A stretch of DNA of 32,000 bases from Candidatus Methylomirabilis limnetica (lineage in GTDB: Bacteria > Methylomirabilota > Methylomirabilia > Methylomirabilales > Methylomirabilaceae): positions 150,001 through 182,000 of the forward strand of contig NZ_NVQC01000017.1 of assembly GCF_003044035.1 (NCBI RefSeq), written 5' to 3'. The position numbers were made by a program, and so were the translations under genes. Shown piece by piece: positions 5,357-29,016 of this stretch. Position 1 is the stretch's first letter, and each line of letters starts with the position of its first letter. A model generated the notes under the pieces. It had not been told where the DNA came from, did not search any database, and worked only from the letters and a program-made list of their open reading frames with translations.

Positions 5357-5603
5357 CCCGATTAGGGCTTCGGGTCCCTTTTATCGGCAGCAATGTGTGA
5401 TAGGTCTTTAACATGACGTAGTCGAATGTGCTGCAGATTTATTCGATGGATGACTTCTCATTGATGTAGGATCTTCCGGGGCAAGTCCATGCGGTCCGGG
5501 TCGAGTTGGACGGGAGCGGAAGGGGAGGGTCCAGGAAATCCGGAAGGGTAAGTGCACTGCGCATCTGTCTACTACGGGGGTGTCGGAACCCGGAGCTAGC
5601 AGT

Positions 5604-5714
5604 TTATCCCCACCAGATTAACAGCTTTACAAGGTACTGCATCATGACCATGGAGACTGCAAGCAGGACTAACCCTAAGACTATACTGAGGCTGCGACGC
5701 GTTTCAAATTTCAT
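5604..5714 (-). CDS. 36-aa predicted single-pass membrane peptide
   Basis: MKFETRRSLSIVLGLVLLAVSMVMMQYLVKLLIWWG, with GAGGA 6 nt upstream of the ATG. It lies 47 nt downstream of the glutaredoxin-like gene on the same strand. It is below the ORF-track size cutoff. Confidence 0.35.
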   Translation of the reverse strand: MKFETRRSLSIVLGLVLLAVSMVMMQYLVKLLIWWG

Positions 5715-5760
5715 AGCTCTTCCTCACTTACGCCAACGACCGTTGGCGCCTCTAGACTGC

Positions 5761-5976
5761 TCAGGTCCCGCCAAACCCGATGGTCACTTTGCCCTTCTCG
5801 ATGATGACGGGAACCTCGCGCGAACCCTTCGAAACCTCCAACATCTGCGCCAGAGCCTTTGGGTCGTTCTTGACGTTGAGGTAGGTGAACGGGACGTTTC
5901 GCTTGGCGTACTCCTCCCGAGCCGCCGAGGTGTAGGGTCAGGTATCCTTTCCGTAAATGACGACCGCCGCCTCCAT
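5761..5976 (-). CDS. Glutaredoxin-like protein with in-frame TGA (candidate selenocysteine) in the redox motif
   Basis: From ATG 5976 (GGAGG 6 nt upstream) the frame reads MEAAVVIYGKDT[TGA 5940..5938]PYTSAAREEYAKRNVPFTYLNVKNDPKALAQMLEVSKGSREVPVIIEKGKVTIGFGGT*. This is a complete Grx/Trx-fold signature, and the TGA sits where the CPYC Cys normally is. Confidence 0.7.
5909..5934 (-). promoter_or_regulatory. Candidate SECIS hairpin for the glutaredoxin-like gene
   Basis: The mRNA segment UACACCUCGGCGGCUCGGGAGGAGUA starts 4 nt after the UGA. UAC/GUA and CCUC/GAGG pair around one A-A mismatch. The apical region GGCGGCUCGG is G-rich. Folded by eye only. Confidence 0.35.
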
Positions 5977-6017
5977 CTGCATCCTCCACTCTCTTCATTT
6001 CGTCTGATTTCTGCGTG

Positions 6018-6365
6018 TTAGACCCGCGTCATGGCCCGGTCAGCTTCTGTGGTCAACCGCTCGTATTCAAGCTTGATGTCGCGCATCTGCGGGTAGAGTT
6101 CCTGAATCTTCTCGTGGGGAAGCGGGATGGTCCGGCCCAGTTCAGTCAGCCGCTCCCCAACCAGCCGAGCCTGCCTGATGACCTCGAACGTCTTTCTGGC
6201 CGGCGGGGTCAGCGTCGCCACCTCCAGGAGGGCAAACATCCCGTCTTCATCTCGTGCCTGGTATAGCTCGTCCAACCGCTGCGCCTGGGTCTCGGTGGGG
6301 CCGCTTTCCCTCAGGGCATGCAGTACCTTCATCCGGTCGATTCGATAGCGAATATCGAGCATCAT
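6018..6365 (-). CDS. Hypothetical protein (115 aa, predicted helical)
   Basis: Track ORF with AAGGAGAG immediately upstream. The second ATG at 6362 has the better spacing. GC3-biased codons. It is the first gene of the operon with the Grx-like gene. I recognise no motif. Confidence 0.6.
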   Translation of the reverse strand: MMLDIRYRIDRMKVLHALRESGPTETQAQRLDELYQARDEDGMFALLEVATLTPPARKTFEVIRQARLVGERLTELGRTIPLPHEKIQELYPQMRDIKLEYERLTTEADRAMTRV

Positions 6366-8346: not shown

Positions 8347-8467
8347 GGGCAGCCACAAGGGCTGCCCCTACTTCGGACTCCGCACCAAACCCTCCCTAAC
8401 CCCCCTTTGATAAAGGGGGTAGCGGGGGGATTTACCTCACACCGGGCGCAGCAAGCAGCGCCCCTAC
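8347..8467. repeat. Composite repeat module: REP-like hairpin B + family-A palindrome + REP-like hairpin C
   Basis: GGGCAGCCacaagGGCTGCCCCTAC (8347-8371), then CAAACCCTCCCtaaCCCCCCTTTgatAAAGGGGGtagcGGGGGGATTT (8387-8433), then GGGCGCagcaagcaGCGCCCCTAC (8444-8467). The same three-part module recurs at 25163-25282. Confidence 0.8.
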
Positions 8468-9696
8468 TCATATCGTAGCGCCTCAATCGGGTCGAGGAAG
8501 GCGGCCTTGCGGGCCGGGTAGTAGCCGAAACAAATCCCCACCAACGCCGAGAACGCAAAAGCCATCAGGACGGCGCCTCCGCTAATCTGGGTAGACCACA
8601 TTGCGAAGTATGAGATCAGAACCGAAACCGAGAGGCCTAGCGCAATCCCGACCAGGCCACCGATGAGCGATAAGGTGACCGCCTCGACGAGGAACTGCGT
8701 CAGGATATCGTGCGCCTTGGCGCCTACCGCCAACCGCAGTCCGATCTCCCGCGTTCGCTCCGTCACGGACACCAGCATGATGTTCATGATGCCGATCCCG
8801 CCTACCACCAGCGAGACCGAGGCGATGGCGCCCAGTAGGATCGACATCACCCGGGCCGCCTGCTCCTGGGCGCCAAACACCTCCACAAGGTTCCGCACGG
8901 TGAAGTCGTTATCCTCCTCCGGCTGCAGGCGGTGCCGCTGCCGGAGGAGGGCCACAACCTGTTCTTCAGCCTCCCGCATTACCATCGGGCCGCGAGCCTG
9001 CACCACGATCGCCCCCACTGCCCTGGCATTAGCCTGGCTCACTCCAAGCACCTTCCTCTTGGCCGTGGAGATGGGAATCAGGATGACATCATCCTGATCT
9101 TGTCCCCAGGCTGACTGGCCCTTTGGAGACAGGCTCCCGAGGACGGTGAACGGTACCTTCTTGATCCGGATGATCTGTCCGACGGGGTCGGTCCCGCCGA
9201 ACAGATTCTTCACTATTGTATCGCCGACAAGCGCCACCTTCGCCGCCCCGTCCACATCCTGCCAGGTGAACGGACGACCATTGAGGACCCGAAAATCGCG
9301 GATCTCCAGGTATTCCGGCGTAACCCCCTGGATTACCGTAGACCAGTTGTCGTTCCCAAGTACGACCTGTCCAGTTCCACGTACACTGGATGCCGTCAAC
9401 GCCACCGCCGGGCACTCGCCGGCAATCGCCTTGGCGTCATCTTCCGACAATGTCATGACCGACCCGGCCCCCACGCGTATCCCGCCGCTGGTCGCGCTGC
9501 CAGACAGGACGATTATCACGTTGCTGCCGATGCTTCGGATCTGCTCCTGGATTTGGGCAGTGGCCCCCGAGCCTACAGCCACCGTAGCGATCACAGCAGC
9601 CACTCCAATAATGATCCCAAGCATGGTGAGGGCCGATCGAAGTCGATTAACCCGGAGCGCCCTCAAGGCGATCCTGACATTGGCCAAGATATTCAT
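8464..9696 (-). CDS. ABC transporter permease, MacB/FtsX-type
   Basis: 410 aa. It has an N-terminal TM helix, a large periplasmic domain and a C-terminal FtsX-like 3-TM bundle (ILLGAIASVSLVVGGIGIMNIMLVSVTERTREIGLRLAVGA). Confidence 0.9.
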   Translation of the reverse strand: MNILANVRIALRALRVNRLRSALTMLGIIIGVAAVIATVAVGSGATAQIQEQIRSIGSNVIIVLSGSATSGGIRVGAGSVMTLSEDDAKAIAGECPAVALTASSVRGTGQVVLGNDNWSTVIQGVTPEYLEIRDFRVLNGRPFTWQDVDGAAKVALVGDTIVKNLFGGTDPVGQIIRIKKVPFTVLGSLSPKGQSAWGQDQDDVILIPISTAKRKVLGVSQANARAVGAIVVQARGPMVMREAEEQVVALLRQRHRLQPEEDNDFTVRNLVEVFGAQEQAARVMSILLGAIASVSLVVGGIGIMNIMLVSVTERTREIGLRLAVGAKAHDILTQFLVEAVTLSLIGGLVGIALGLSVSVLISYFAMWSTQISGGAVLMAFAFSALVGICFGYYPARKAAFLDPIEALRYE

Positions 9697-9702
9697 AGAC
9701 GG

Positions 9703-10446
9703 CTACTCTGCCTCGTCTGCCGGGCGCTGCTGCAACTCCTGGAGCGCTGTTCTTGGCCGCTCAACCGCCTCATCCCGCAGCAGCCGGCCATCTTTGAAGA
9801 ATAGTACGCGCCCGGCGTAGGTCGCGATGTCCGACTCATGGGTCACCAGGACGATGGTGATCCCAGCTTCCCTGTTCAGCCGCTGGAAAATCGCCATAAT
9901 CTCGGAACTGGTCTGCGAATCGAGATTGCCAGTGGGCTCATCAGCCAGGATGATCTGCGGCTCGTTGACAAGGGCCCGCGCGATCGCCACTCGCTGCTGC
10001 TGACCGCCCGAAAGCTGGTTCGGATGATGTTCTTTCCGATCTTCAAGGCCAACCGTTCGGAGGGCGTTGAGCGCTCTGACCCGGCGGTCGCGGACCGCAG
10101 CACCATTATACAGGAGTGGGAGTTCCACGTTCGCTACGGCGCTGGTCCTGGCCAGGAGGTTAAAGGTCTGAAAGACGAAGCCGATCTTCTTATTTCGGAT
10201 TTCGGCAAGCTCATCTCGATTGAGCTGACCCACGCTGACGCCGTCAAGCCGGTAGCTTCCGGATGTTGGCTTGTCCAGGCATCCCAGGATGTTCATCAAG
10301 GTGGACTTGCCGGACCCGGAGGCACCCATGATCGCTACACACTCCCCTCGTTCAATTCGGAAGGAGACCCCTCTTAATGCCTGGACGGTGACATCGCCCA
10401 GCCGATAGTTCTTGACCAAACTGTCGACCTCGATGAGAGCTGCCAT
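9703..10446 (-). CDS. ABC transporter ATP-binding protein (MacB/LolD-type)
   Basis: Walker [10 protein letters not shown], signature [15 protein letters not shown] and Walker [12 protein letters not shown] are all present. Confidence 0.92.
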
Positions 10447-10455
10447 GACTCTACC

Positions 10456-11892
10456 CTAGAACCTCGGCCCGCGCTGGCCAAACGGCTGGGCCTGTGGGGC
10501 CGCTGTGGACCCGATCCCTGTGAGCACTCCTTGCCCTTCCTTGAGGTCGCCTTCGATCATCTCACTAAAACTGCCATCGGTGATTCCCAGCTTCACCGTG
10601 ACCGACCGCGGCTTACTATCCTCACCCAGAACCCAGATGGTCTGATCCCTCTCAGCCTTCCGGATGCCGAGGAAATCCGGCGTCCCTTTCCCTGTCGGAA
10701 ATCTCTGTGGAGTCTGGACCGACGCCTCTCCTCCTTGCTTCGGTTGCTCCTTCAGGTCGGGGGGCCTAAACCGCATGGCAGCACTGGGAATCTTCAGCAC
10801 ATTCTCCCGGCTGTCCACCAGGATCTTGACATTCGCCGTCATCCCTGGAAAGAGTTTAAAATCAAGATTGGCAACCCCAATCACGGCATCGTAGGTGATC
10901 ACGTTCTGGATGTTCATTGGAGCCTGCCGGATCTGGATCACCTTTCCCCTGAAGATCTCACCCGGGAAGGCATCCACGGTGAAGGCGGCGTCCTGCCCTA
11001 CTCGAACACGCCCGATGTCGGCCTCATCCACGTTTGTGTCCACCTGCATCTTGGTCAGGTCCTGTGCGATCAGGAAAAGGGTCGGGGCGGATAGGCTCGC
11101 TGCTACCGTCTGCCCGACATCTACGCTCCGCGAGACCACGGTTCCGTCCACCGGCGCCCGGATATAGGTATGATCGAGATCGATCTGCGCCTGCCTCAGG
11201 GCGGCCTCGCTCTGTTTCACCTGTGCCTCGGCCGACGCGATTTGAGCTATAGCTACTTCGTGCTGGGCCTGGGTGGCGCGAAGAGAAAACTGCGCAGCCT
11301 GCTCCTGGGCTTTCGCAGCCTCGAGGGCCGCAATATTGGAATCGTAGGTCGCCTGCGCCGAATCGCGCTCCTCAGCAGAGATGCCGCCCTCCTTGAAGAG
11401 GTTGATCCGGCTCTTGAGCTTGATCTGGGCGTCCAGGACGGCAACCTTAGCCCTGGCCACATTCGCTTTCGCGACTTCCAGCGAAGCATTTGCGCTGGCG
11501 ATATCGGCCTCGGTTTTCTGGAGCATCGCCCGCGTGTTGAGTACGGCCGCCCGAACGTTGTCCAGATTGCCCTTGGCCTGGTTCACCTTGGCTTCAAAGA
11601 TCTCCGGATCGATTCTGGCCACGAGTTGCCCTTTCTTGACCTTGGTATTGAAGTCGGCATGGAGTTCCTTGATGTTCCCGGAGACCTGACTGCCGACCTG
11701 AACGGTGACTACGGCGTTGGGATTTCCGGTAGCCGAAATAGTTGCCTCAATGTCGCCCCGCTCAACCTTGGCCGTCCGGTACTCGACTCGTTTCTGGCCT
11801 CGCAGGTACGCCCAGCCACCCAGGCCGGAAAGCGCGACCAAACCAATGACAACCAACAGCACCTTCGCTTTTGGCATTTTCATGGGCATCAC
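10456..11892 (-). CDS. Efflux periplasmic adaptor (HlyD/MacA-type membrane fusion protein)
   Basis: 478 aa with a signal/anchor, a long Ala/Gln-rich coiled-coil hairpin, and lipoyl and beta-barrel segments. It sits between the TolC and ABC genes, and its ATG overlaps the TolC stop by 4 nt. Confidence 0.88.
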   Translation of the reverse strand: MMPMKMPKAKVLLVVIGLVALSGLGGWAYLRGQKRVEYRTAKVERGDIEATISATGNPNAVVTVQVGSQVSGNIKELHADFNTKVKKGQLVARIDPEIFEAKVNQAKGNLDNVRAAVLNTRAMLQKTEADIASANASLEVAKANVARAKVAVLDAQIKLKSRINLFKEGGISAEERDSAQATYDSNIAALEAAKAQEQAAQFSLRATQAQHEVAIAQIASAEAQVKQSEAALRQAQIDLDHTYIRAPVDGTVVSRSVDVGQTVAASLSAPTLFLIAQDLTKMQVDTNVDEADIGRVRVGQDAAFTVDAFPGEIFRGKVIQIRQAPMNIQNVITYDAVIGVANLDFKLFPGMTANVKILVDSRENVLKIPSAAMRFRPPDLKEQPKQGGEASVQTPQRFPTGKGTPDFLGIRKAERDQTIWVLGEDSKPRSVTVKLGITDGSFSEMIEGDLKEGQGVLTGIGSTAAPQAQPFGQRGPRF

Positions 11893-13514
11893 AGCTCGAG
11901 CTGATTCTTTTCGAGGATAGTGCCTTTCTGAAGATCGAGATTGGCCAAGTCCTGATTATAGGTTGTGATCGCCTGGATCTCGCTGGCCTGGGCTACCGCC
12001 AGGTCTCGCTGAAACGAGAGGACGTTAAAGGTGGTCGTGACGCCGGCCTCGAGCCGCTTTTGCTCAACCCGGAGCTGCTCCTCCGCCAGCGCCCGCGCCG
12101 CCCTGGTGGCCTCTACGCGCCGGACATCGGCATCGATTCGCCGGACCGCCTCCCGAACCTGAGAGATAATCTGACGCTTAAGATTCAGCAGGCTCGCTCC
12201 AGCCTGATCGTGGCTGAGCCTTGCCTGAGTAAATGCCGACCTGGCAGAGCGGTTGCCTAACGGGTACGTCAGGACCATGGCTGCCGACCATTGCGTAAAG
12301 TCGCCCGAGGTCAATCGATCCAGATCGCCGCCGGCGCTGCTGTTAAGGCCGTTGAGGCCGACATTACCCTGCAATTGGAGGCTGGGCAGCAACTGATTCC
12401 GCTTGACCCGCAGATCGAGATCGCTGTTCTGCAGCGTGAGCTTTGCTGCGGCGTACTCTGGCCGCTTCTCTAAGGCCTCCTGGATGCTGGCGTCGGTATT
12501 CATCGGCGCCACCTCAAAGGGTAGCGTGTCAGCCGGAAGAACCGTCCTGGCCCAGATTCGCTCACCGTCAGGGAAGTTAACGATGAGCTTGAGTTGATCT
12601 TCGGCGTCTTTGACCGCCTTCTCGGCCAGGATGACATCTTGGACCCGGGCTGCCGCCTGGGCCTCAGCCTGAGTTACCTCTACCGGGGCCGCGACACCGG
12701 CCCGCACCCGCGCCCTATTGAGATCCTCCAGCTCCCTGGCCAGGCGCAGCGAGCGCCTCTGAACCTCCAGGTTCTCAATCGCAAACACCAAACTCCAGTA
12801 GGTGCTGTGAACGCTGGTGATCACCTGGTTCGCCTGCTGACGGAACTGCGTCACCGAGATTGCCTGATTATTCCTGGCGATCTTGATGGGGGCCGTGTTC
12901 ACATCGACGCCGAAGTTCTTGAGGAGATCCTGCGTAATGCTTAAGTTAAGGAACGTCTTGTACGAGGGGTTGAACCCTTGCGGGGGTTGAGCAAAAGCCG
13001 AGTTGGTATCAAACCGGTTATTGGTCAAGCTCAACGTGTAGCTGGCACCGAAGGGCAGCTTCTGAGTGAGAGAGGTATTGACATCGCGGTTTTCAATTTC
13101 GCTGACCTGTGTCCCCTGAAGAACGTTAAATGTAGGCGTGACTGTCCGGTTCGCATCGAGGGTGAGGGAGAAGGTCGGATCAAAGATGGCCTTTGCGATA
13201 GCGATGTCCTCGGATTTGATCTTTGGGCTGAAGCTAGTGATGGCGATATCGAGGTTGTTCTTCAGGGCCAGCAGGACGGCCTCGCGCAGGGAAAGGCGAA
13301 GGTCACCCACCTCTGTTAGCTCGGTCCGGCTCGATTCCGCTTGGGGCGCCGACTGAACGACCAGGCGCCTCAGATCGTCAGACACCTCTACGCGACTCCG
13401 CGCAAACGAGGGGGAAAGGCTGTCCTCCGCCCCCGCCACGACAGCAGGCAGAACAGTCAGCAACATCACCGACATCATCGTCCACGGGCAAACCTTGCGC
13501 TGCAACGCCGTCAT
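11889..13514 (-). CDS. TolC-family outer-membrane efflux protein
   Basis: 541 aa with an N-terminal signal-like segment (MMSVMLLTVLPAVVAGA) and an internally duplicated OEP-type architecture. It is the first gene of the MFP-ABC operon. Confidence 0.82.
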   Translation of the reverse strand: MTALQRKVCPWTMMSVMLLTVLPAVVAGAEDSLSPSFARSRVEVSDDLRRLVVQSAPQAESSRTELTEVGDLRLSLREAVLLALKNNLDIAITSFSPKIKSEDIAIAKAIFDPTFSLTLDANRTVTPTFNVLQGTQVSEIENRDVNTSLTQKLPFGASYTLSLTNNRFDTNSAFAQPPQGFNPSYKTFLNLSITQDLLKNFGVDVNTAPIKIARNNQAISVTQFRQQANQVITSVHSTYWSLVFAIENLEVQRRSLRLARELEDLNRARVRAGVAAPVEVTQAEAQAAARVQDVILAEKAVKDAEDQLKLIVNFPDGERIWARTVLPADTLPFEVAPMNTDASIQEALEKRPEYAAAKLTLQNSDLDLRVKRNQLLPSLQLQGNVGLNGLNSSAGGDLDRLTSGDFTQWSAAMVLTYPLGNRSARSAFTQARLSHDQAGASLLNLKRQIISQVREAVRRIDADVRRVEATRAARALAEEQLRVEQKRLEAGVTTTFNVLSFQRDLAVAQASEIQAITTYNQDLANLDLQKGTILEKNQLEL

Positions 13515-13531: not shown

Positions 13532-13665
13532 CAGGGTATAGGGTGTAGGGTGTAGGGTTTAGAACTCACATGCCAACCTTTTTTATACCCTATACCCGTT
13601 TCCCTTTCCCCTATACCCCATACCCTCGTCTTTTACCCTATACCCTATACCCTCTACCCTATCCT
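13532..13665. repeat. Inverted repeat built from 7-nt tandem units (GGGTRTA)n ... (TAYACCC)n
   Basis: The left arm is GGGTATAGGGTGTAGGGTGTAGGGTTTAG. The spacer contains CATGCC and a T-run. The long right arm is ATACCCTATACCC...TACCCTATACCCTATACCCTCTACCCTATCC. On the minus strand the hairpin is followed by TTTTT just before the tolC RBS, which looks terminator- or attenuator-like. Confidence 0.8.
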
Positions 13666-14101
13666 ACGGCTTGCGCTCCGACGCTTTCGATTGAGAGGCT
13701 GCCGCTTCCTCCGCCCGACGCTCCTCGTCCCACCGCTTGACAAACGCATCGAAGCGGGGCTGCTGCTCGGCATTCAGGATCGAGCGAATCCGCTGACGCG
13801 CCCGCTGTCTCACCTCCTCGAACTGCGGCTGAAGACGCCTGCGCAACGTCAGAAACTCCTCGCGCGTCTCATCCAGCGCCGCGTTCAACGCGCCCACATG
13901 CTCCGGCTGGATCCGCACCGCCTCCGTCAACTCTCGGACGTAACGCTCCCGATTGAATCTCCCGGTCCACACAGCTTGGCTCGCCGGATCGACCCGGTGC
14001 AGGTATGCCGACCAACTCAGGGCGCCCGCCGCGACACCCAAAAGAAAGACTATGAGAAAGGCGAGTCCAACCTTAGCGCGCGTCTCAATCATCTGATTCA
14101 C
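13664..14101 (-). CDS. Periplasmic Spy/CpxP/ZraP-like protein (periplasmic stress/heavy-metal sensor family)
   Basis: 145 aa with an N-terminal TM/signal (VGLAFLIVFLLGVAAGALS) followed by a helical Arg/Glu/Gln-rich region with LxxxQ-type segments (LNAEQQPRFDAF). It holds the typical third position after an ECF sigma/anti-sigma pair. Confidence 0.6.
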   Translation of the reverse strand: MNQMIETRAKVGLAFLIVFLLGVAAGALSWSAYLHRVDPASQAVWTGRFNRERYVRELTEAVRIQPEHVGALNAALDETREEFLTLRRRLQPQFEEVRQRARQRIRSILNAEQQPRFDAFVKRWDEERRAEEAAASQSKASERKP

Positions 14102-14114
14102 CCTATTTTCTCTC

Positions 14115-14633
14115 TTACCTCAAGCCCTGCACGTCATCCTGCCTCAACACGAACGCCAGCATCTGGTCCCGACTGGGCTGCCCGACCACCCCCGGAAGGT
14201 TCACTTCCTCCAGGGAAAAGGCATACATGTCCGTTCCGCCCCGCACCTGAACCGGAAGCGACGAGCGCGACGCTCCCAAGAGCCTGCCCCGGACTCGATC
14301 CGGGGAGAGCGTCACCCCGACGAGCAGCAGGACTCCCATGGCCAGCGCCGGGATCAATCGTCTCGCGAATCCCCAGGCATGAAGCAGGCTCGTATCGGGC
14401 TGGTTGATCTCTCGCTCTGCCAATCGCGCTCGCAAGCGCGGGTAAAAGGCGGGTCCGGGTTCGATCTCTTCGCGCAAGGTCTGAAACAGCGCCGACGACA
14501 GGTTGGCGATCTTCATCGCCTCACCGCACGTAGGGCAACTCTTCAGGTGAAGCGCGAGATCCTTATCATCTGCAGAGGGGTGACCTTCCCCGCCTTTGCC
14601 CTTCAACAGTGTCGTTGCCTCGTGACAAGTCAT
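14115..14633 (-). CDS. Anti-sigma factor (zf-HC2 type, membrane-spanning)
   Basis: The N-terminus is MTCHEA... and the H-x3-C-x2-C motif is present (HLKSCPTC). There is one central TM helix (LIPALAMGVLLLVGV). Its start overlaps the sigma gene stop (ATGA). Confidence 0.8.
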   Translation of the reverse strand: MTCHEATTLLKGKGGEGHPSADDKDLALHLKSCPTCGEAMKIANLSSALFQTLREEIEPGPAFYPRLRARLAEREINQPDTSLLHAWGFARRLIPALAMGVLLLVGVTLSPDRVRGRLLGASRSSLPVQVRGGTDMYAFSLEEVNLPGVVGQPSRDQMLAFVLRQDDVQGLR

Positions 14634-15280
14634 TCGCCCCTCCCTTCACGATGTACTGCCTCTTCTTCCTGACGGATCAGGCTCTGACACCACGCCTGCA
14701 TTACCCGTCTCGCCCGCCATAGACGGACCTTCGCGGCCGCCCTGGTGCAGCCGAGCGTGCTGGCGATCTCCGCGATCTCAAGCCCGTGAACCTCCCGCAA
14801 TGTGATGACCAGTCGGTCCTTTGGCGCAAGGCCAGCCAGCGCCCGCTCTGCGAGATCTCTGGCCGCAACCTGGTCTCCAAGTGACGGATGCCCCTTATCG
14901 GCCAGGAGGTGCATGAAATCACGCTCACCCTCCCCCATGTCGGTAAAGGTAATCTCGGCGTGTCGACGGATTTTCCGGAGGTGATCGTAACAGGTGTTGA
15001 CGGTGATCCGACGAAGCCATGGCCCGAATGGGGCCCCCGGTCGAAACCGCCCGATAGCCAGGTACGCTTTCAGAAAGACATCCTGGGCCAGGTCTTCTAC
15101 GTCCTGCTTCCGCCGGAGAAAGCTACCAATAATGGCACACACATGCCGGTCATAGAGCCTGAGTAGGGCCTCGAAGGCTTGCTGGTCGCCATCCTGCGCC
15201 CGCTGGATGAGATGGGCTTCTCTCTCTGAAGCCTCTCGCCATCCCTCAGCAGGCTCCTGGTCTTTCCTCCTGTCGTTCAT
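14630..15280 (-). CDS. ECF (sigma-24 type) RNA polymerase sigma factor
   Basis: Region 2 is present (DVEDLAQDVFLKAYLAIGRFRPGAPFGPWLRRITVNTCYDHLR), as is the region 4 HTH (LREVHGLEIAEIASTLGCTRAAAKVRLWRAR). Confidence 0.9.
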   Translation of the reverse strand: MNDRRKDQEPAEGWREASEREAHLIQRAQDGDQQAFEALLRLYDRHVCAIIGSFLRRKQDVEDLAQDVFLKAYLAIGRFRPGAPFGPWLRRITVNTCYDHLRKIRRHAEITFTDMGEGERDFMHLLADKGHPSLGDQVAARDLAERALAGLAPKDRLVITLREVHGLEIAEIASTLGCTRAAAKVRLWRARRVMQAWCQSLIRQEEEAVHREGRGE

Positions 15281-19920: not shown

Positions 19921-20288
19921 ATGTAAATGTAATAAGTGTAACCTATTGTAAATACAGTGTTTTTTAACCAACAAATGATTATTTTCCCAAGCCCACAAAT
20001 GACTTGACAGTCGTGATGGAGTGGGCTAAAAGAGACGTCTCCTTAACAACGTCATGCGGGTAATTGCACATGAGACACGGTTTCCCACAGCCACCTTATC
20101 TGTCGAACTCGTCACGCGTCGGGGACGATGGGCCTCTTCATGAGGCGCGACAAGCATTTACGCCTTATCCACACCTGTGGATAACCCTGTGGATAATGGA
20201 AACCCCATCTGGCAAAGACTCTATAGGAATCGTACAGCATTTTCTTAATAGATTCAACAGGTTAGATAGGGAGGCTTCCTGTGGATAA
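19921..20288. other. Candidate oriC / dnaA regulatory region (AT-rich tract plus DnaA-box cluster)
   Basis: The stretch 19921-19990 is AT-rich (atgtaaatgtaataagtgtaacctattgtaaatacagtgttttttaaccaacaaatgattatttt) in an otherwise GC-rich window. Four perfect TTATCCACA boxes are present: 20165-20173 (+), 20176-20184 (-), 20188-20196 (-) and 20280-20288 (-). The last overlaps the dnaA GTG start. Confidence 0.65.
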
Positions 20289-21666
20289 CAATGGGCACGG
20301 TGCGCAGGTGAATCCGATCAATTCGTCCACCAGGGCACATGAGATCTGGCAAGAGGCCCTCTCAATCATCCAGGGTAAGGTCACACGCCAAAGCTTCGAC
20401 AATTGGTTTCGCCCCCTGGCCCTGGAGTCGTTGGAAGACTCATGCGTCACGGTTCAGCTCCCGAATCAATTCTTTAAGGAGTGGTTTGAGGACCACCATC
20501 TAACTGTACTCAAATCGGTACTCGCGGATCTGATGTTCGCCAGCGTCGAGGTCATCCTCCGCATTGCTGAGCCAGGGGGGCAGGGCGAGCCAGATGTAAA
20601 ACCCGAACCTGCCGTCAGACGACCAGTGAAGCGATTCCGGAACGAATCTGCAGTCCTCAACCCGAAGTATGTCTTCGAGAACTTCGTCGTAGGGAGCTCC
20701 AACCAGTTCGCCCACGCCGGCTGTCTGGCCGTGGCAGAGCAGCTTTCGAAAGCGTACAATCCGCTCTTTATCTATGGGGGCGTTGGCTTAGGGAAGACTC
20801 ACCTGCTCCATGCCATCGGCCACCTGGCCCTCAAGCGAAATAATAGGCTCAGGCTTGCCTATGTCTCATCCGAGAAGTTTACGAACGACCTGATTAATGC
20901 CATCCGTTTCGATTCCACTGGTGAGTTCCGCAACCGCTACCGTAGCCTGGACCTGCTTCTCATCGACGATATCCAGTTTATCGCCGGCAAAGAGCGGACC
21001 CAGGAGGAGTTCTTCCATACCTTTAATGATCTGTACGACTCCTCCAAGCAGATCGTGGTCACCTCTGACAGCCTCCCGCGCGAGATCCCCACGCTGGAGG
21101 AGCGGCTACGTTCCCGGTTCGAGTGGGGTCTGATCGCTGACATCCAGTTGCCGGACCTCGAGACCAAGGCTGCCATCCTTCGGAAAAAGGCGCAGGCGGA
21201 TGGCGCGCGGATCCCTGATGATGTCTCACTCTTTATCGCCAAGAACGTGCAGTCAAGTATCCGGGAACTGGAAGGCTCGTTGGTCCGCCTCATCGCCTAC
21301 GCCTCGCTGACGGGCCGCGACATCACCTTAGAGCTCGCCCAGGAGACACTGAAGGAACTGAACGCCGAGCGGGCCAAGGTCATCACGCTGACCGCCATAC
21401 AGCACACGGTGGCCGACTTCTATCGCGTCAAGGTCGAGGATCTCAAATCCAAGGGCAGAAACCAGGGTGTGGTTCTGCCGCGCCAGGTCGCCATGTACCT
21501 CAGTCGAACACTCACCGCCTCCTCGCTGCCGGTTATCGGCGAGGCGTTCGGCGGAAAGGACCATACGACAGTGATCCACTCCTGCGAGAAGATCAAGCGG
21601 AGGCTCGCAACGGATGAGGCATTCCGGCGACAAATCGACTCCCTCTCCCAAACGATCACCTCTTAG
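20281..21666 (+). CDS. dnaA: Chromosomal replication initiator protein DnaA
   Basis: GTG start with GGGAGG 6 nt upstream. Present are the AAA+ Walker A (GGVGLGKTHLL), Walker B (LLLIDDIQF), sensor/box VII (VVTSD) and the C-terminal DnaA-box binding signature (ARQVAMYLSRTLT...IGEAFGGKDHTTVIHS). Confidence 0.95.
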   Translation: MDNNGHGAQVNPINSSTRAHEIWQEALSIIQGKVTRQSFDNWFRPLALESLEDSCVTVQLPNQFFKEWFEDHHLTVLKSVLADLMFASVEVILRIAEPGGQGEPDVKPEPAVRRPVKRFRNESAVLNPKYVFENFVVGSSNQFAHAGCLAVAEQLSKAYNPLFIYGGVGLGKTHLLHAIGHLALKRNNRLRLAYVSSEKFTNDLINAIRFDSTGEFRNRYRSLDLLLIDDIQFIAGKERTQEEFFHTFNDLYDSSKQIVVTSDSLPREIPTLEERLRSRFEWGLIADIQLPDLETKAAILRKKAQADGARIPDDVSLFIAKNVQSSIRELEGSLVRLIAYASLTGRDITLELAQETLKELNAERAKVITLTAIQHTVADFYRVKVEDLKSKGRNQGVVLPRQVAMYLSRTLTASSLPVIGEAFGGKDHTTVIHSCEKIKRRLATDEAFRRQIDSLSQTITS

Positions 21667-28578: not shown

Positions 28579-29016
28579 TCACCTTGCGTATTTTCGGTCA
28601 ATTGCCGTCTTGATCTCTGCAACTGTCTTTCCCTGCTTGTGCATGGCATACGCATCCAGCGTAATGTCTTGGCACATCCCTCACCCGTCGGCATGCCGAT
28701 CCGCGTAACAATCGAGGTTGCTTTGATGGTTGGCCGACGCGACGCAACCGCAATAGCAGGGCATCTGCTCGATCAGTTCCGGCGCTTCCTTGGCGATCCG
28801 ATAGGCCTGCGCTGTTTTTCCACTGAACAGCGCAGGTGACGGCGTAACCGGCCGCGGCCGTTTCGGAATTACCTGAAGCACGCTACCGGCGCCTTCTGCT
28901 CTCCTCACGCCCGGGCGCCAACCAACGTCAAGCCCGACGAATAGGCCGACCAGGCCTCCGCCAAGGATCTTGAGAACCGCTCGTCGGTCAGACTGCTCTC
29001 CTTCATCCCGTTCCAT
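28579..29016 (-). CDS. Tat-signal PCYCGC-domain protein with in-frame TGA (candidate selenocysteine) in a U-x-x-C motif
   Basis: The track ORF (28681-29016) stops at TGA 28683..28681. Read-through in the same frame gives ...QMPCYCGCVASANHQSNLDCYADRHADG[U]GMCQDITLDAYAMHKQGKTVAEIKTAIDRKYAR*. The N-terminus has a twin-arginine motif (SDRRAVLKILGGGLVGL). The extension restores the conserved C-terminal half of the PCYCGC family. Confidence 0.7.
28647..28666 (-). promoter_or_regulatory. Candidate SECIS hairpin for the PCYCGC gene
   Basis: The mRNA segment CAUUACGC-UGGAU-GCGUAUG starts 14 nt after the UGA. It forms a 5-bp plus 2-bp stem with one bulged U, and the pentaloop contains GG. Folded by eye only. 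Confidence 0.35.

Follow-up and report, generated by a model that had tools for sequence, protein, structure and literature searches.

A minus-strand gene at 5976..5752 of the window (the whole stretch of DNA that was analysed, 32,000 nucleotides in length) is, judging from comparative sequence evidence, a genuine, unannotated small glutaredoxin-like selenoprotein gene of the methane-oxidising bacterium Candidatus Methylomirabilis limnetica. The locus is best explained, with high confidence, as encoding a UXX-star family 1 protein with two selenocysteine (Sec, U) residues, each of the two UGA codons being followed by a stem-loop of its own. The first predicted Sec occupies the position of the glutaredoxin nucleophile, and the second lies three residues from the C-terminus.

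Gene model and features

The reading frame opens at ATG 5976..5974 on the minus strand, and a GGAGG Shine-Dalgarno sequence stands at 5987..5983 with a 6 nt spacer. Both elements can be read directly from the sequence, as the initial annotation had stated. Translation of this frame gives MEAAVVIYGKDT-TGA-PYTSAAREEYAKRNVPFTYLNVKNDPKALAQMLEVSKGSREVPVIIEKGKVTIGFGGT-TGA-AV-TAG. The frame, the peptide and the TGA at 5940..5938 reported in the initial annotation are therefore retained, while the end of the gene is moved to 5752, since TGA 5763..5761 is taken as a second Sec codon. The codons that follow it are GCA GTC TAG, so that the U-X-X-stop layout is present. The ORF list offers only two frames over this gene, 5711-5998 (minus) and 5506-6021 (plus), both as implausible as had been said of them. 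The features of the locus are as follows.

5976..5752, minus strand: whole coding sequence of the glutaredoxin-like selenoprotein (UXX-star family 1), 74 aa, MEAAVVIYGKDT-U-PYTSAAR...KVTIGFGGT-U-AV, stop codon TAG at 5754..5752
5983..5987, minus strand: Shine-Dalgarno sequence GGAGG, by direct sequence reading
5938..5940, minus strand: UGA at residue 13, the predicted first Sec codon, within the U-P-Y-T motif at the N-terminal end of helix α1, from translation and relatives
5905..5926, minus strand: SECIS-1 candidate within the coding region, codons 17-24, GGCGGCUC[GGGAG]GAGU(A)CGCC
5761..5763, minus strand: UGA at residue 72, the predicted second Sec codon, within the tail G-G-T-U-A-V-stop at the C-terminus, from relatives and the NF041114 profile
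5730..5749, minus strand: putative SECIS-2 in the 3' UTR, GCGCCAAC[GGUC]GUUGGCGU, an 8-bp stem 11 nt after UGA-72 and past the TAG
6018..6365, minus strand: upstream 115-aa ORF from the ORF list, annotated in Ca. M. limnetica as hypothetical protein PTL36211/WP_133174651

The 115-aa ORF ends 42 nt before the start of the selenoprotein gene on the same strand. No NCBIfam match was found for it, and no terminator-like site was found between the two genes. This ORF is lineage-specific and is probably co-transcribed with the selenoprotein gene.

Family assignment and fold

For profile searches, U was replaced by C in the peptide. With both positions replaced, the product scored 122.1 bits (cutoff 72) with the NCBIfam model NF041114, ‘UXX-star selenoprotein family 1’. 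The match spans profile positions 1-70 of 70 and has E = 8e-36, a result far beyond chance. The version ending at 5761 scored 114 bits against the same cutoff and covered positions 1-67 of 70 only. Because the addition of C-A-V completes the profile, the true CDS was set at 5976..5752, with 74 residues including Sec13 and Sec72. The parent subfamily NF041212 was also exceeded (102 bits vs cutoff 66), UXX-star families 2 and 3 scored below their cutoffs, and Pfam PF00462 (Glutaredoxin) matched at 46.5 bits against a cutoff of 22.9 (E = 4e-12). The profile search with U read as C, which the initial annotation had proposed, returned a curated family, and Cys-containing homologues align at column 13.

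The [U/C]-x-x-Thr motif on a glutaredoxin-like fold is present as U13-P-Y-T16, and C/U13, P14, Y15 and T16 are invariant in the family alignment. The name ‘UXX-star’ denotes a C-terminal Sec-X-X-stop. The set of UXX-star families was reportedly described by Haft and Tolstoy in 2025, likely the primary description. The gene is an ordinary member of NF041114, and its two Sec positions were already catalogued. A 2026 AEM review lists the family as ‘Distant Grx-like protein 1’, with the motif UxxT and 2 Sec (PMC13188914), so that the U-x-x-T motif, which had been regarded as unusual, was on record together with the second Sec both there and in NF041114. The window protein has in common with the family a glutaredoxin-like fold of ~70 aa, the [U/C]-x-x-T motif, the C-terminal Sec-x-x-stop and the two Sec, and structurally nothing sets it apart. 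It differs in its A-V tail, found in 9 of 147 loci, where G-V is commoner (115/147), and in an atypical SECIS-1 core. These 147 unique parsed loci comprise 72 genome loci and 75 metagenome loci, the latter among the matches listed.

The fold was examined with an AlphaFold2 (AF2) model of P0001, a naturally occurring Cys13 allele that lacks the last three residues. The model (pLDDT 87.5) comprises β1 (5-9), α1 (14-25), β2 (30-34), α2 (39-48), β3 (57-60) and β4 (63-66); V55-P56 is present, the tail is of low confidence, and no C-terminal helix (α3) follows β4 and G-G, where the chain stops. The top Foldseek matches were all glutaredoxins; glutaredoxins (3ic4, 7c10/7c12), BC3987 and NrdH were matched at TM ~0.8. 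Together with the Pfam match, these data confirmed the glutaredoxin fold that had been assigned from the letters of the sequence.

The window protein shares with classical dithiol glutaredoxins the common fold, a nucleophile at the N-terminus of α1, the x-P-Y-x spacing, V-P (cis-Pro) before β3 and G-G after β4. In contrast to them, it carries Thr in place of the resolving Cys and has no C-P-Y-C, and it lacks both the C-terminal helix and the GG-x-D-D glutathione-binding end, having instead a short tail with the second Sec. The dithiol glutaredoxin model TIGR02181 has a cutoff of 90 bits, and the window protein scored 43. The closest solved structures belong to cGrx1 (PDB 7c10/7c12; TM 0.8), the Cys paralogue of a clostridial Sec-containing glutaredoxin of the UxxC type, and 7c12 was also the best PDB sequence match (E = 4e-7). 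NrdH-redoxin and the BC3987-type redoxins (PDB 1h75, 3zij) are of similar size (~75 aa) and have a similarly minimal fold (TM 0.76-0.83). They are, however, dithiol proteins of the CxxC type with neither Sec nor a reactive tail, and the NCBIfam NrdH models fell well short of their cutoffs (28 bits vs 86).

Codon 13 in relatives and SECIS-1

Relatives were gathered with two patterns of different scope. The pattern used to scan genome contigs contained Cys (CPYTxAA...) and could return only Cys13 forms, whereas the metagenome pattern G-K-D-x-TGA-P-Y-T-x-A-A required TGA and gave at least 120 loci. Among the metagenome matches listed, 75 loci were parsed directly as complete genes carrying both TGA codons, and most of the other 45 were the same gene with variant Gly motifs; at least about 113 of those listed were intact TGA13 loci, five were cut by contig ends and three were disrupted. 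The frame and the β1 strand upstream of TGA13 were kept throughout the metagenome loci listed. Since the frame is kept across the TGA in at least 113 double-Sec loci, double-Sec forms are common. Column 13 holds Cys in 54 proteins from the databases and at 71 loci from genomes. Homologues thus align Cys or Sec at this column, which, with the recurrence of TGA13 in four assemblies described below, agrees with the initial placement of Sec at the nucleophilic position of U-P-Y-T.

A hairpin of 8 bp at 5926..5905 (ΔG -12.2 kcal/mol) starts 11 nt after UGA-13. A SECIS had been placed at 5934..5909, 4 nt downstream of the TGA, and this position is corrected here. Both predicted SECIS stems start 11 nt past their UGA, with apical loops of GGGAG at site 1 and GGUC at site 2. 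Relative to shuffled sequences, SECIS-1 gave z = -3.4 as an isolated 24-nt hairpin and z = -0.14 to +0.5 in a context of 41-66 nt. Best-hairpin energy did not differ between Sec13 and Cys13 relatives (Mann-Whitney p = 0.63); as both classes are GC-rich, energy was dropped as a discriminator and synonymous-site conservation was used in its place.

By that measure the two classes are well separated. Ala19 is encoded as GCC in 71/73 Sec forms and 19/69 Cys forms (Fisher p = 5.5e-20), Arg20 is encoded as CGC in 0/73 Sec forms and 38/62 Cys forms (Fisher p = 1.8e-17), and the string GCCCG[U/G]GA occurs in 67/73 Sec forms compared to 8/69 Cys forms. In these alignments the synonymous-site constraint downstream of codon 13 is strong and specific to Sec forms, and the constrained sites appear to define a coding-region SECIS with the apex C-C-[G(U/G)GA]-G-G, ~19 nt after UGA13. 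RNAalifold returned zero consensus pairs for SECIS-1 from 74 codon-aligned Sec13 sequences; because the lower stems lie in different registers in each subgroup, no claim of covariation is made. Rfam searches showed no SECIS or other RNA family, either at the gathering threshold across the whole window or at E <= 10 in 5680-5990.

Probable decoding of TGA13 in the window strain

UGA13 is likely decoded efficiently as Sec in this strain. The main competing explanation is that TGA13 is a null (nonsense) allele: the lineage would have drifted to Cys13, SECIS-1 would have decayed, and a later TGT-to-TGA change would have left a pseudogene or trace expression, with only the C-terminal Sec functional. 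This sequence of events is unlikely, though it does draw on real features of the locus. Cys13 forms are common, and a more divergent strain, L001, with 18 differences in all, carries TGT (Cys) at codon 13 and an otherwise identical protein. The core of the window's SECIS-1 (codons 18-22, GCU CGG GAG GAG) is also unusual, deviating by GCU in place of GCC at codon 19 and by GAG in place of GAY at codon 22; its log-likelihood ratio (LLR) of -2.2 falls below all 73 of 73 Sec forms and is equalled or exceeded by 14/69 Cys forms.

The wider sequence points the other way. Taken as a whole, the downstream region of the window copy scores as Sec-type, and its LLR of +4.3 exceeds that of 66/69 Cys forms. 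With U in place of C at codon 19, the apical pair can still form as a U·G wobble; the change from D to E (GAG) at codon 22 lets the stem lengthen by shifting its register; and the nearest Sec relatives have less stable hairpins. The start codon, ribosome-binding site, frame, hairpin and SECIS-2 are all intact. Apart from codon 13, the coding sequence has accumulated 7 synonymous and 0 non-synonymous changes since the split from L001, a pattern that argues against a pseudogene.

The recurrence of TGA13 also counts against a null allele. The adjacent HAD protein was matched exactly on nine contigs, and the four that cover the selenoprotein gene all carry TGA13, TGA72 and TAG. TGA13 was found in four independent assemblies, each from a different sample (L202-L205: ERZ4201064, SRR6684602, ERZ27287891 and SRR4754859) and on two haplotypes, L202 and L204 having the window sequence and L203 and L205 differing at 5/441 nt. 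Outside the species, the closest relatives are L151 and L129 (86%) and L173 (70% identity), all of which combine TGA13 with a U-A-V tail. Since these three outgroups all have TGA13, TGA is ancestral and L001 represents a derived Sec-to-Cys switch; a nonsense allele would require two changes and not one. The initial annotation had named TGC or TGT at this codon as evidence against recoding. TGT does occur in the sister strain, and the polarity of the change indicates that it points to no error in the window, where the TGA is that of all four assemblies.

In the assessment of the two-Sec explanation, the atypical SECIS-1 core, the TGT of L001 and the RNAalifold, hairpin energy and Rfam results were counted on the negative side, as were the lack of sel genes and tRNA-Sec in the window and of a conserved neighbour.

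The C-terminal Sec codon and SECIS-2

TGA 5763..5761 is, by comparison across the family, the second Sec codon, more strongly conserved than the first and three residues from the C-terminus. Every parsed locus has TGA at this site, 72/72 from genomes and 75/75 from metagenomes, and none has TAA or TAG. In all 147 parsed loci, drawn from many phyla, it is followed by exactly two sense codons, x-[V/I], and then by a stop. The 72 genome loci belong to Acidobacteriota/Vicinamibacterales, Anaeromyxobacter, other ‘Deltaproteobacteria’, Planctomycetota and Eisenbacteria, and their real stop, after GFGG[TSAG]-TGA-x-[V/I], is TGA in 35, TAG in 27 and TAA in 10. Outside the 147 parsed loci, site 72 is Cys in L042/P0048 and Ser in L060, and P0048 runs on past the usual end as GFGGACGV-stop.

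SECIS-2 (5749..5730), which was absent from the initial annotation, has a ΔG of -13.3 kcal/mol (z = -3.2), starts exactly 11 nt after UGA-72 and is identical in strain L001. For a family-wide comparison, the best simple hairpin with its start 6-17 nt past the UGA was determined in the 147 unique loci and in dinucleotide shuffles. A hairpin was present after UGA72 in 147/147 loci, with a mean energy of -12.35 kcal/mol compared to -4.38 kcal/mol for shuffled sequences (Wilcoxon p = 7e-26), and every locus surpassed its own shuffle mean. These hairpins have a modal spacing of 11 nt, stems of 6-8 bp, and GG or GU in 97% of loops. No more than 9/147 loci show a T-run, so the hairpins are not intrinsic terminators.

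The initial annotation had described a mono-selenol U-x-x-T glutaredoxin of 71 residues that ends at TGA 5763..5761, in which case the hairpin beyond would be a terminator or due to chance. This reading is highly improbable. Gene callers and databases do end Cys13 homologues there, almost all of the 54 database homologues stopping at GFGG[T/S], and other genes in the window do terminate at TGA; gene callers, however, are expected to cut at TGA, which accounts for the database ends. The invariable TGA followed by two sense codons and then by any stop, the Cys at this site in L042/P0048, the three additional residues held by the curated profile, and the 11-nt spacing, G-rich loops and near absence of T-runs all oppose termination at this codon. 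Least probable of all is a sequencing or assembly error for TGT or TGC at codon 13, where L001 differs by a single base, and this explanation is effectively refuted by the same TGA in four independent assemblies and two haplotypes.

Selenocysteine capacity of the host and annotation

TGA is the stop codon of the ferredoxin, glcD and ccdA genes in the window, consistent with the earlier view that recoding is local and that the genetic code is not altered. None of selA, selB, selD or tRNA-Sec was found within the 32-kb window by ARAGORN and profile searches, and ARAGORN found no tRNA at all in it. The window does contain a second selenoprotein gene.

29016..28579, minus strand: NF041379 ‘CYCXC family (seleno)protein’ gene, TGA at 28683..28681, motif U-G-M-C

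The CYCXC gene exceeds the model's cutoff of 90 bits only when its TGA is read through, with a score of 122.2 bits; cut at the TGA, it scored 75.7 bits and covered profile positions 2-56 of 90. The energy of the hairpin downstream of its TGA was not significant. Besides this gene, the search for other TGA-interrupted genes in the window yielded only junk. Ca. M. oxyfera, with 6 selenoproteins, appears in a list of Sec-utilising organisms, which makes the genus a known Sec user, and 63 selenoprotein genes have been predicted in a Methylomirabilota MAG. The CYCXC gene, Ca. M. oxyfera and this MAG were counted as indirect support for Sec decoding in the host.

Proteins of the window match GenBank PTL36207, 36210, 36213, 36225 and 36226 exactly. 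Neither the accessions nor the locus tags skip a number where the UXX-star gene would fall, so it is unannotated in the Ca. M. limnetica record, and GenBank shows the CYCXC gene truncated at its Sec codon as hypothetical protein PTL36231.

Clustering of the neighbourhoods of 148 loci showed no universal partner gene and none that pointed to a substrate. An ABC exporter (~20-30 Acidobacteriota loci) and endonuclease III (9 loci) were considered as partners and rejected, as both look like lineage synteny.

Proposed mechanism and related systems

Family membership, both TGA codons, both hairpins, the comparative conservation and the recurrence across strains are observations; the mechanism set out here is a proposal. 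During translation, SelB with Sec-tRNA(Sec) would bind the stem-loop 11 nt past each UGA, SECIS-1 (5926..5905) lying in the coding sequence and SECIS-2 (5749..5730) in the 3' UTR past the TAG. Sec13 would take the position of the glutaredoxin nucleophilic Cys in a U-P-Y-T motif that has an invariant Thr and no resolving Cys, and Sec72 would be carried on the flexible Gly-rich tail G-F-G-G-T-U-A-V-stop. Sec72 might serve as a mobile centre that takes over from the absent resolving Cys or adds a second redox site, by analogy with the GCUG tail of thioredoxin reductase (TrxR). The tail may swing Sec72 onto Sec13 to form a diselenide, or a selenenylsulfide in Cys13 relatives. Alternatively, residues 13 and 72 could act together as a chelator of a soft metal or metalloid, a role that has been proposed for UXX-star family 1 in the 2026 review (PMC13188914).

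Mammalian TrxR, which ends in -Gly-Cys-Sec-Gly-stop, offers a parallel for the tail, as both proteins have Sec no more than three residues from the C-terminus in a flexible Gly-rich segment. The role proposed for the tail here, that of a second, mobile redox centre, follows the TrxR model. In the window protein Sec stands next to Thr, where TrxR has Cys, so the partner of Sec72 would have to be residue 13 in the fold. The two also differ in that the arrangement here is natural and bacterial and in that its carrier is a 74-aa redoxin, whereas TrxR is a flavoenzyme.

The parallel extends to the RNA. A minimal E. coli SECIS, ggttgcaggtctgcacc, with a GGUC loop has been used to express rat TrxR1, in which Sec498 is followed only by Gly499 (PMC3834832); with so little coding sequence after the UGA, the E. 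coli SECIS in that construct would lie behind the stop codon. Arnér et al. 1999, cited in PMC3834832, reportedly expressed TrxR in E. coli with an fdhF-type SECIS positioned behind the stop codon. SECIS-2 and the element of the TrxR construct are alike in lying in untranslated RNA after the stop and in having a GGUC apical loop, and the GCAGGUCUGC core of the minimal E. coli SECIS was found in 5 relatives. Compared with the E. coli fdhF-type SECIS, both window stems start 11 nt past the UGA and SECIS-2 has the GGUC loop, whereas the SECIS-1 loop, GGGAG, has no U and its stem has a bulged A on the 3' side. SECIS-2 is untranslated, whereas bacterial SECIS elements are usually described within coding regions.

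Implications

The current understanding of the family is unchanged, as the family and both Sec positions were catalogued before. The gene nevertheless appears to offer a clear natural case of a bacterial SECIS that works from the 3' UTR, immediately past the stop codon. Roughly half of the relatives have a stop-UGA only 6 nt from a Sec-UGA, and the two would be distinguished by spacing alone.

The missed gene and the truncated PTL36231 together imply that, without profile-aware pipelines, the selenoproteomes of this selenium-rich phylum are under-annotated.

The TGA/TGT polymorphism at the active site within one species provides a small, neat system for the study of Sec/Cys exchange. It is a tentative, and rather doubtful, extension of these results that Sec13 and Sec72 form a diselenide and that the TGA/TGT alleles, with a drifted SECIS-1, represent a Sec-to-Cys replacement in progress. 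SelL, a UxxU protein, is the usual example of a natural diselenide protein. If the extension is true, the family would be one of very few natural diselenide redox proteins, and its alleles would allow a natural comparison of diselenide with selenenylsulfide, and of SECIS quality with the fate of the codon.

Codon 13 polymorphism

In a closely related strain (locus L001, GCA_973355545.1), codon 13 of the selenoprotein gene (L001:615-839) is TGT (Cys), while the same codon of the gene in the window (5752..5976) is TGA. The two selenoprotein sequences are identical save for codon 13, and seven synonymous differences separate the genes. The strain is of the same species, and the TGA/TGT alternation is a naturally occurring polymorphism between Sec and Cys in the active site. 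The L001 strain also carries two extra genes, encoding a DUF433 protein and an Mrr-like nuclease, between the selenoprotein gene and the HAD hydrolase gene.

Second selenoprotein gene

28579..29016, minus strand: CYCXC family (seleno)protein gene, 145 aa
29308..31917, minus strand: adjoining CopA-like P-type ATPase gene

The 28579..29016 gene contains an in-frame TGA (28683..28681, motif U-G-M-C). Its product passes the NF041379 model, 'CYCXC family (seleno)protein', solely when this TGA is read through, scoring 122 bits where the cutoff is 90. The GenBank version is a truncated hypothetical protein (PTL36231), and the same TGA is the truncation point in all 19 cluster members. On this sequence evidence the window has a second selenoprotein gene here. 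The energy of the hairpin 3' of its TGA was not significant.

Regions flanking the first selenoprotein gene

6018..6365, minus strand: 115-aa ORF, hypothetical protein PTL36211/WP_133174651
5604..5714, minus strand: 36-aa hydrophobic ORF (MKFETRRSLSIVLGLVLLAVSMVMMQYLVKLLIWWG)

A gap of 42 nt separates the end of the 115-aa ORF from the start of the selenoprotein gene, which follows it in the same orientation; a family search with this ORF returned no match, and it occurs only in Methylomirabilis-like sequences. An alternative in-frame ATG (5980..5982, minus strand), placed two codons ahead of the start adopted for the selenoprotein gene, would give MQMEAAV... but is an unlikely start because it overlaps the GGAGG and leaves no spacer.

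Directly 3' of SECIS-2, the hairpin beyond the selenoprotein stop codon, the 36-aa ORF is preceded by the ribosome-binding site GAGGAAG. One assembly (L204) has it among its called genes, and it is conserved in L001. It encloses a sigma-70-like promoter match (5707..5680, 10/12). The segment may be either a genuine micro-protein gene or the HAD gene's promoter region.

Other genes

20281..21666, plus strand: dnaA (TIGR00362, 563 bits)
14630..15280, minus strand: ECF sigma factor
14115..14633, minus strand: zinc-finger anti-sigma factor
13664..14101, minus strand: 145-aa protein
8464..13514: MacAB-TolC-type efflux operon

A 460-bp intergenic region lies directly 5' of dnaA, and the window probably adjoins the chromosomal replication origin. 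The three minus-strand genes at 13664..15280 lie upstream of the efflux operon; antisense ORFs placed there by simple gene calling were rejected as wrong in favor of these genes.

C-terminal UGA codons in relatives

Among the parsed loci of relatives, the stop two codons past the Sec-UGA is itself UGA in about half (35 of 72 from genomes, L002-L081; 38 of 75 from metagenomes, L082-L200). In those relatives, a pair of UGA codons spaced by 6 nt is decoded in two different ways, and distance to the hairpin is presumably the sole cue that distinguishes the Sec-UGA from the stop-UGA.
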